Origin: Octopus sinensis
Taxonomy: Eukaryota
Direction: 5' to 3'
Length of the DNA: 64,000 nt
Assembly: GCF_006345805.1 (NCBI RefSeq)
Contig: NC_043008.1
Coordinates: forward strand, 10,416,001 to 10,480,000
How positions within the stretch are numbered: the stretch's first letter is position 1; every line of letters starts with the position of its first letter. Positions 42,886 to 44,720 of this stretch are shown one piece after another. The translations under genes were made by a program, and so were the position numbers. The notes beneath the pieces are model-generated. The model ran no database searches, was not told the DNA's origin, and was given only the letters and a program-made list of their open reading frames with translations.

Positions 42886-42888
<3 letters not shown>

Positions 42889-43285
42889 GGTGGAGGAACT
42901 CTTGAGAGTCAACGGCCATCCAATAAATGTCTTAAGGCCGTATCATGCGCAGGGACATAGAAATAGCCGGACTGAATACCCGATCGCACAGTTAAATCAT
43001 TGGGAGTGAAGGACTCCTAGCCTTTGTTAGGGCATCCTTCTAGGAGAAGGTAACTCATGTATCTGGGATAACTCCGATATAAAACCTGCAGCTCAGTGTT
43101 TACCGATGATGTTGACTTGTTCTTCTTTTCAGATTATGGCTGCTGTTGCTTAGTGAGTGGGATTGACTCAGTGCACAGCCTTTCCTCACTTTCAAAAAAA
43201 ATCTTCTTGCACAGGCATTGCATGATAACAACATTGATTAAGCTTCGTGCAATGGCCATACTCGATAACGAGGGGCAGCCACCAT
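42886..43285 (+). mobile_element. ~400-bp GC-richer insertion in (TA)n, probably a non-autonomous RTE-related element
   Basis: Sharp composition boundaries. Contains tagggcatccttctaggagaaggtaactc, resembling a motif I recall from RTE 5' UTRs. No credible ORF. Confidence 0.5.
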
Positions 43286-43728
43286 ATATATGTATATATG
43301 TGTGTGTGTATATATATATATATATATTATAATAAGAGATATATGTGTGTGTGTGTGTGTGTATGTATATATATGTACATATATATGATATATGTATATA
43401 TATACATGTATATATTTATGACATATATATGTATGTATATATGTATATATGTGTATATGTATATGTATGTTTGTATGTGTATATGTGTATGTATATATAT
43501 ATATATATAATAATAATAAATCTCTGAGTGAGATATAAACAGTAACTGCTCTATAACATAAGGGGTATCAGCCATCTGAATGTGGCTAGGGACAGGGCGG
43601 GGTAGTGGGGGTGTTACTGATGCATTTAGCCCCAGGCGATCATCAACGTCACCAGAAGGGCTGACACCATCTCGGTGTCCTTGCCAGCCTGCAAAGGGAG
43701 ATCAGCCTCCCCGAAGATACGGATACTA

Positions 43729-43771
43729 CATACAGACCGGTTTCGAGGTATTTGCCTATTACCAACGCATG
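43729..43771 (-). ncRNA. Hammerhead motif, probably inactivated copy
   Basis: CATGCG-TTGGTAA-TAGG-caaata-CCTC-GAAAC-CG-GTC-TGTATG; A6G in the core, palindromic ACCGGT stem III. Confidence 0.7.
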
Positions 43772-44078
43772 GTAAGCACCGTTCTTTGTTGAGGGACTTC
43801 CTCTACAGGCTGGATATATATGGATTTTCACAGTAACCACAGTCACTGATGTAGAAAAACCGTTCGACAACAATAATAAATCTCTGAGCGAGCCCTGTCC
43901 CTAGCCACATTCAGATGGCTGACCCCCCTTATGTTATAGAGCAGTTACTGTTTATATCTCGCTCAGAGATTTATTATTGTTGTCGAACGGTTTTTCTACA
44001 TCAGTGACTGTGGTTACTGTGAAAATCCATATATATCCAGCCTGTAGAGGAAGTCCCTCAACGAAGAACGGTGCTTAC

Positions 44079-44121
44079 CATGCGTTGATAAGAGGCAAAT
44101 ACCTCGAAACCAGTCCGTATG
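44079..44121 (+). ncRNA. Minimal type-I hammerhead ribozyme with U3-A8 core
   Basis: CATGCG-TTGATAA-GAGG-caaata-CCTC-GAAAC-CA-GTC-CGTATG. Stem I 6 bp (one G-U), stem II 4 bp, GUC cleavage triplet. Confidence 0.8.
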
Positions 44122-44720
44122 TAGTATCCGTATCTTCGGGGAGGCTGATCTCCCTTTGCAGGCTGGCAAGGACACCGAGATGGTGTCAGCCCTTCTGGTG
44201 ACGTTGATGATCGCCTGGGGCTAAATGCATCAGTAACACCCCCACTACCCCGCCCTGTCCCTAGCCACATTCAGATGGCTGATCCCCCTTATGTTATATA
44301 TATATATATATATATATATGTTTCTTTCTTTTGTGTTATGCTAAGAAGCATGTGCAATACCAGATAAATTTATATATAGAAATTAAGACATGTGCTCCCA
44401 GTAATACATCCGATATATCTGTATGATCACAAAATAATCCAAGAACATTTAGCATTAAGTCAGAATGTTCAGAGTTATGATAATAGTCTTCAGGATTGAT
44501 ATACCAATGTCCAATATTTCAGAAATCTAACAAAAGAACTAACATATATGAAAATTACTTATATTTACTCGGACAGAATTGTTTTCCCCAACAGCAAACT
44601 TAACTAATTTCATTAGCAGGCTTCAAAAAAAGTGATGTGGTGGTACACACATACGTGCATGATGGAATCTCCATCGGTTATTCAGTCAGGAGAATTCCTT
44701 CTTATGAGATTGACATCTAA

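Follow-up and report, generated by a model that had tools for sequence, protein, structure and literature searches.

Non-LTR (long terminal repeat) retrozymes have been described in mussel (350-390 nt), axolotl (330/350 nt) and coral (PMC7229834; bioRxiv 10.64898/2026.07.22.740005), and circles of the mussel and axolotl RNAs have been shown experimentally (PMC7229834). Mobilisation of such circles by Penelope-like elements (PLEs) is the model proposed for retrozymes (PMC7229834), in parallel with a circle model for PLEs (PMC4209133), and a survey of 35 genomes, among which its main text names no mollusc, argued from co-occurrence and similarity to PLE pseudo-LTRs (pLTRs) that retrozymes are non-autonomous PLE derivatives (bioRxiv 10.64898/2026.07.22.740005). 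The marks of a PLE insertion are a one-ended tail, a partner copy that is inverted and truncated, and target duplications of 8-10 bp (PMC8557442, PMC3846280). In the anole PLE Poseidon PAc, the tail lies between two internal start sites of the reverse transcriptase (RT), which nicks and extends both target strands and is predicted to form a dimer (PMC11167929). Here we analysed a 64,000-nt stretch of Octopus sinensis DNA (NC_043008.1, positions 10,416,001 to 10,480,000; hereafter the window), which carries a 360-nt unit with a type I hammerhead ribozyme, copied into two inverted arms. We think it rather probable that the unit belongs to a dispersed hammerhead retrozyme mobilised in trans by a Penelope-like RT-endonuclease, which would prime twice, once per nick, on one probably circular RNA.

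At the window locus the two arms are joined 5'-to-5' (head-to-head) at 43892 with a 1-nt overlap, and TA tracts lie on both sides. A sequence-only reading of the window had described two near-identical inverted arms, and positions 43552-43892 and 43958-44298 were indeed 98% complementary across 341 nt. When the arms were aligned to a head-to-tail 360-mer (unit position 1 being window 43892), both matched it without gaps past one full round, at 407 nt and 384 nt, with nine mismatches separating them. The direct repeats at a distance of 360 nt reported in that reading were also found, in the left arm (43509-43532 and 43869-43892, 22 of 24 nt) and, over 47 nt, in the right arm (43892-43938 and 44252-44298, 46 of 47). 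The longest stop-free frame wholly within the element has 92 codons, in line with the earlier description of an ORF-less unit. The predicted fold of the unit is more stable than those of all 100 shuffled sequences (z = -4.3). Because a (TA)n tract flanks the element, any target-site duplication at this locus would be hidden.

Searches of the octopus genome revealed that the unit is one of many. A 31-nt ribozyme core gave 164 exact matches, a 32-mer upstream of site A (one of two recurrent 3' ends, A and B, described below) gave 790 at up to two mismatches, and a pattern for the tail between the two sites gave 3032 at up to two mismatches, sister families included; the reversed control of each gave none. 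A DNA search of the same genome returned 1951 first-look candidates, of which 40 were scored. One locus often yields two or three matches, so the family comprises some hundreds of dispersed loci and not one per match. Sister families are 60-80% identical and have periods of 354-358 nt. Their loci, found with the tail pattern (L194, L188, L187, L189, L191, L214 and others), form a superfamily with C3-G8 or U3-A8 ribozyme cores and differing palindromic loops, and several of them have the same pair of A and B ends as the family.

For the analysis of copy structure we used 80 loci, comprising every locus to which the first 100 core matches (of 164) belong; the set is thus selected for an intact ribozyme. 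A pooled set of 112 loci was made by adding 20 loci from other searches and 12 of 20 tail-selected loci, leaving out seven sister-family loci and one locus beside a gap; counts of arm concordance, haplotypes and private alleles refer to 111 of them (L198 omitted). Among the 80 loci, 39 were two-armed and head-to-head, 35 single-armed and 6 complex. A DNA-level rearrangement, a satellite remnant or an assembly artefact is scarcely credible as an explanation for such a layout. Microsatellite DNA, as at the window locus, is hard to assemble; the layout is nevertheless present at 39 of 80 loci; these lie on many chromosomes, their flanks are unique and they have target duplications, and the window arms differ at nine sites. 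With 164 core matches against none in the reversed control, the locus is neither a chance similarity nor an artefact of assembly, and the single-copy outcome that the sequence-only reading had named as a danger to its proposal did not arise.

The copy ends showed a clear pattern. In the 74 simple loci, 3' ends of 106 of the 113 arms fell at two places about 43 nt apart, site A (unit 42-48, 64 arms) and site B (unit 85-93, 42 arms), while 5' ends were scattered across the entire unit. When a two-armed locus had both ends at a site, one arm ended at A and the other at B in 35 of 36 cases, and in 48 of 49 in the pooled set, which holds five further two-armed loci with one end off-site. More than half of the 3' ends (57 of 113) adjoin a TA run of at least 8 nt. 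Outside TA tracts, target duplications of at least 8 nt flanked 15 of 16 two-armed loci, compared with 0 of 29 shifted controls; they are AT-rich and mostly 12-14 nt when measured with 6 nt of boundary slack, or about 12 bp. As the duplications flank both arms, each two-armed locus is one insertion at a staggered cut. The sequence-only reading had taken the arms for different circular permutations of one 360-mer. The permutations do differ, but they are constrained. Only 5' ends vary, and the 3' ends sit at two fixed places, each used by one of the arms, so that the permuted arms are the two-start-site tail signature of PLEs and not random circular permutations. The two 3' ends with a tail of 30-45 nt at one end, the inverted 5'-truncated partner, the target duplication and the AT-rich or TA targets are together the features of PLE-type integration, as had been supposed for an octopus retrozyme-like family, and they make mobilisation in trans by a PLE very likely. 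In the 80-locus set, single-armed copies (n = 35) ended at site A more often than at site B (25 against 6), and 5' ends were somewhat commoner at unit 100-180, which the ribozyme selection may cause. Four complex copies (L104, L101, L133, L202) show jumps within the copy, a second segment in the same direction or an A arm of very small length, and may record template switching. At L018 (940-993, 1949-2000) the element is inserted into a TA run; by eye, the sequences flanking that run look like the repeated 3' region of another PLE family (L231, L234), and the insertion is likely nested.

The two arms of a locus appear to be separate products of reverse transcription. In 24 of 48 A+B loci, the window locus included, neither arm is contained in the other. 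Nested arms were no commoner than expected (a count of 24 against a permutation mean of 24.4), and the arm lengths were hardly correlated (0.16, p 0.27). Since half of the pairs are not nested and nesting equals its shuffled-length value, we regard the arms as independent RT runs, and two independent priming events are highly probable. Fold-back self-priming of a single strand, invoked for head-to-head repeats with junction palindromes in rotifer Penelope elements (PMC3846280), would account for alleles common to both arms and perhaps for 5' ends lying within 20 nt of each other in 8 of 48 loci (5.5 expected). It should make one arm a sub-copy of the other, an expectation that half of the loci or more contradict, and it gives no reason for a second arm ending exactly at the other fixed site beside a target duplication; we consider it most improbable.

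The arms nevertheless probably have a common source. At polymorphic positions the two arms disagreed in 57 of 2125 comparisons (2.7%), about as often as successive rounds within one arm (49 of 1449, 3.4%), compared with 25% for random loci, and private alleles of one locus were common to both arms in 8 cases against about 0.14 expected. One RNA offering both start sites explains the shared alleles and the A+B rule alike, and we judge it probable that both arms came from the same RNA molecule. Among rare changes, which were mostly C>T (36) and G>A (27), A>G (13, against 8 T>C) was too infrequent for a footprint of A-to-I editing.

Next is the form of that RNA. Of the 113 arms, 53 exceed 360 nt, 3 exceed 720 nt and 1 exceeds 1080 nt, the longest covering 3.3 rounds without a gap, and 12 span two cleavage sites (each window arm has one); copies with at least two ribozymes, as known from retrozymes, thus occur. 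In an unselected subset, made up of arms whose partner had supplied the ribozyme match, 53 of 57 read through the cleavage site and 4 stopped (about 1.6 expected, p 0.08); in the 80-locus set as such, the selection inflates length and read-through counts. A cleaved linear monomer would stop RT at unit 225, and the read-through therefore counts against such a template. None of 48 single-arm loci shared an abutting 5' flank with another, which weighs against short linear sources because the transcript of a short copy should pass its flank on to its daughters. No long tandem array was found among the first 100 core matches, as judged from match spacing and arm lengths and not counted directly. 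The read-through, the lack of shared flanks and of visible arrays, and a conserved ribozyme of the dimer type lead us, from sequence, to favour a circular template as the fairly probable one. As a separate candidate, the cleavage site was considered as a run-off point for RT and rejected, with stops at unit 221-229 in 4 of 156 arms against 3.6 expected.

The strongest competitor, in our estimate unlikely yet far from negligible, is a PLE-type two-site insertion from an uncleaved linear multimer (transcribed from collapsed arrays or multi-round copies) or with in-register template jumps; no circle would be needed and the ribozyme would have another role. The anole PLE inserts unprocessed RNA and its cleavage is dispensable in vitro (PMC11167929); 8 of 9 Xenopus retrozyme dimers stayed uncleaved in vitro (bioRxiv 10.64898/2026.07.22.740005); and copies with two cleavage sites exist here (12 of 113 arms). 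Against it stand the 3.3-round limit on copy length with no long array among the first 100 core matches, the 5' read-through into flanks that short linear sources should leave (0 of 48), and the 29 haplotypes, 13 of them recurring, among 77 loci, which would require many hidden arrays. Furthermore, the ribozyme and its dimer palindrome have been kept by compensatory change across families that are about 30-40% diverged. None of the listed sequencing runs that hold the sequence is recorded as RNA. Contigs from four runs guessed to be RNA cover one unit and some join its end to its start, which is no evidence either way because genomic copies longer than a unit yield the same joint. In runs X1, X5 and X6, whose RNA origin is itself a guess, sister units at a greater distance had deeper contigs than the family did, among them a 359-nt contig with an end-to-start joint; this is a lead at most.

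The ribozyme was assigned from motif, fold and covariation, because an Rfam scan of the locus gave no hammerhead match at E ≤ 1; miRNA matches in the same scan were rejected as artefacts of the inverted repeat and the TA tracts. One type I hammerhead is present per unit, as in retrozymes and as the sequence-only reading had called for each arm, and the cleavage position it gave, 44116, agrees with the predicted site. The layout is that of canonical metazoan type I hammerheads, and the U3-A8 core is a known variant found in schistosome PLEs (PMC4209133). In 13 ribozyme copies across sister families 93.6% of cells are paired, and double changes occur at 8 of the 17 pairs, with C3-G8/U3-A8 and the loop-III palindrome as examples; the covariation controls ignore relatedness among these copies. 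The family ribozyme is intact in most units. In the window, a G->A change at 44112 turns the loop-III palindrome of the right arm from CCGG to CCAG, and each ribozyme lesion of the locus was present in just one of the 48-51 units compared. Because both ribozymes carry private changes, and both are probably dead or weakened to judge from these lesions, the window locus is a single decayed insertion, a dead or dying copy whose value lies in its family. Unit positions 11-30, at the hairpin upstream of site A, vary least among copies (33 changes over 4670 unit-sites), and the hairpin-bearing tail (43939-43981) is a candidate RT-binding element. The features of the locus are collected in Table 1.

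Table 1. Features of the octopus element and its flanks, by position in the window.
Feature	Position	Strand	Details
Left arm	43509-43892	-	384 nt, 1.07 rounds, unit 67->360->90, gap-free; 3' end at site B; carries the 43-nt tail
Right arm	43892-44298	+	407 nt, 1.13 rounds, unit 1->360->47, gap-free; 3' end at site A
Single 360-nt unit	43892-44251	+	48.6% GC; no long ORF
Terminal tail (unit 48-90, between sites A and B)	43509-43551	-	hairpin, then U-rich end; only at the left-arm end of the insertion
Internal tail copy	43939-43981	+	hairpin 43956-43970; segment best conserved in sister families
Hairpin directly upstream of site A	44263-44280	+	second instance 43903-43920
Right-arm type I hammerhead	44076-44123	+	stem I 6 bp; U3-A8 core UUGAUAA 44085-44091; stem II 4 bp, GAAA; stem III 1-2 bp; predicted cleavage 44115/44116
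Left-arm type I hammerhead	43727-43774	-	core lesions A6->G (43762) and G10.1->U (43758); predicted inactive
TA-rich microsatellite	43284-43509	.	left part of target
(TA)n tract	44295-44319	.	right part of target

A non-repetitive segment of 400 nt, which lies between TA tracts immediately to the left of the element (42886-43283), has short inverted ends, GGTGG and CCACC, and is possibly a further small transposon.

The sequence-only reading would have been overturned if all genomic copies were attached to an RT/GIY-YIG ORF as ordinary pLTRs. Among 173 element loci (some overlapping, with 1.1-2.5 kb flanks), no such ORF was contiguous with the element; tblastn with two resident PLE ORFs matched four of them, in each case outside the element and on the opposite strand, past a TA tract or more than 1 kb away. 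That the copies are what is left of 5'-truncated pLTRs, from an ordinary autonomous PLE with unsampled ORF-bearing copies, is thus very doubtful: all end features would fit, and the partner search covered part of the candidates, whereas the sequence upstream of the ribozyme wraps gap-free to the tail up to 3.3 times, PLE ORFs matched at only these 4 of 173 loci, and no common 5' flank was seen in 48 single-arm loci. Homologous stretches at L160/L172 and L168 were considered as pLTRs and rejected, being separate sister-family insertions bounded by TA tracts.

The genome has resident PLEs of its own. In a very young autonomous family (L164-L167, L169, L174), whose copies are 97-99% identical, the RT-GIY-YIG frame is 781 aa long; upstream there is an overlapping open frame, which reaches 479 codons and is rich in N, Q, H and T, and the family has a U3-A8 hammerhead. 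Within TA tracts, most of its copies end at one of two positions some 35 nt from each other, and its linker has a CxxxxCxxC motif, which is reported for Neptune and Nematis PLEs (PMC8557442). The upstream region of a second PLE family (L168, 775 aa) is similar, and the patterns used revealed no hammerhead in that family.

Taken together, the findings suggest the following course of events. Copies longer than one unit would be transcribed, and their hammerheads, acting as dimers through the palindromic loop III, would excise 360-nt monomers that a host ligase may circularise, as in the mussel and axolotl retrozymes. A PLE protein, possibly a dimer, would bind the hairpin-tail element and nick both target strands about 12 bp apart. 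One cDNA would start at site A, within unit 43-47, and the other at site B, within unit 87-90, each rolling round the template and stopping at random; once the two growing ends are joined, the arms would stand head-to-head and just one end would carry the tail. More tentatively, and short of an even chance in our view, a dimeric RT-endonuclease may cut about one helical turn apart and prime two rolling-circle cDNAs on the same ribozyme-made circle, always one per fixed site. If true, all endonuclease-bearing PLEs would owe their head-to-head repeats, one-sided tails and over-unit copies to a single mechanism, and the retrozyme would hijack the PLE enzyme through RNA structure without common sequence.

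Several observations pull the other way and lower our confidence in this course of events. Six of the 80 loci have complex layouts, locus L117 of the pooled set is A+A, the sister-family copy L214 is B+B, and single-armed loci outside TA tracts carry a duplication in only 4 of 13 cases. The unit was compared with 61 GIY-YIG loci, several of them overlapping, which represent five PLE families or more and were drawn from 147 listed out of 5029 candidates; among them, no autonomous PLE shared its tail or ribozyme or carried the unit as a pLTR. Stops at the cleavage site are slightly in excess, which would fit some linear cleaved templates, arrays can collapse in assemblies, and for the anole PLE uncleaved RNA is described as the dominant substrate and ribozyme mutants still insert (PMC11167929). 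The agreement between arms could also come from subfamilies active in succession or from gene conversion between arms. The selection for intact ribozymes and the relatedness among the copies used for covariation belong here as well.

Until now the case for mobilisation of retrozymes by PLEs has been built on co-occurrence and on resemblance to pLTRs, and how the inverted repeats and tails of PLEs arise is a standing question. At just 360 nt, and with young copies in the hundreds, the element allows each round and both arms to be measured. Two priming events have left direct traces in the near-strict A/B rule, in the duplication of 12 bp and in arms that are independent and not nested, and these traces speak against self-priming. 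The family also defines a small RNA, with two hairpins and two start sites, that is usable as a linear or circular template in the existing in vitro PLE assay. The novelty is limited, since the element class and the circle-to-over-unit model are already in print; the copies are unusually clear, countable evidence on how a PLE enzyme integrates such RNAs.

Compared with known systems, this is, as judged from the genome, a new non-LTR retrozyme family of an established class that bears a PLE integration signature. It was absent from the literature on octopus and cephalopod hammerheads, retrozymes and Penelope elements, a search that stopped short of Repbase, Dfam and the supplements of two retrozyme papers, which may list related sequences. 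Like metazoan retrozymes, which are ORF-less, 150-450 nt long and below 50% GC, it has a unit of 360 nt with 48.6% GC, one type I hammerhead, a stable predicted fold, duplications above 4 bp and co-resident PLEs. Unlike them, its copies are dispersed, mostly shorter than two rounds and often head-to-head, and no long tandem arrays were seen. Its two fixed 3' ends were not found described for retrozymes in main texts. No matching autonomous pLTR was found for it, whereas 24 of 57 Xenopus retrozyme families match known elements (bioRxiv 10.64898/2026.07.22.740005). RNA expression and circles have been shown for known retrozymes and are predicted for this family.

As in endonuclease-bearing PLEs (PMC11167929, PMC3846280, PMC8557442), the 3' ends lie 30-45 nt apart, the tail is one-ended and the inverted partner copy is 5'-truncated; the 8-12 bp duplication, AT-rich or (TA)n targets, over-unit copying and a type I hammerhead with palindromic loop III are shared as well. 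Unlike those elements, the family has no RT or GIY-YIG ORF, and as the whole element is only pLTR-sized, measurements on it extend to both arms and to more than one full round. The same papers treat the tail as optional or often one-sided, where here a near-strict A+B rule and independent arm lengths could be counted. Non-autonomous Chlamys PLEs such as MRC1 likewise form pLTRs and multicopy head-to-tail insertions; they differ in occurring in green algae, in lacking canonical hammerheads and in a 3' end that generally resembles that of their autonomous family (PMC8557442). A last point of comparison is priming itself. In L1 twin priming, one RNA is primed twice, which leaves an inverted 5' segment, with the second primer at variable internal sites and the parts non-overlapping. 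A description of twin priming was not found for PLEs among the papers that a literature search listed. The octopus family resembles L1 in its apparent two priming events and differs from it in that both starts are fixed and the arms copy the same bases.
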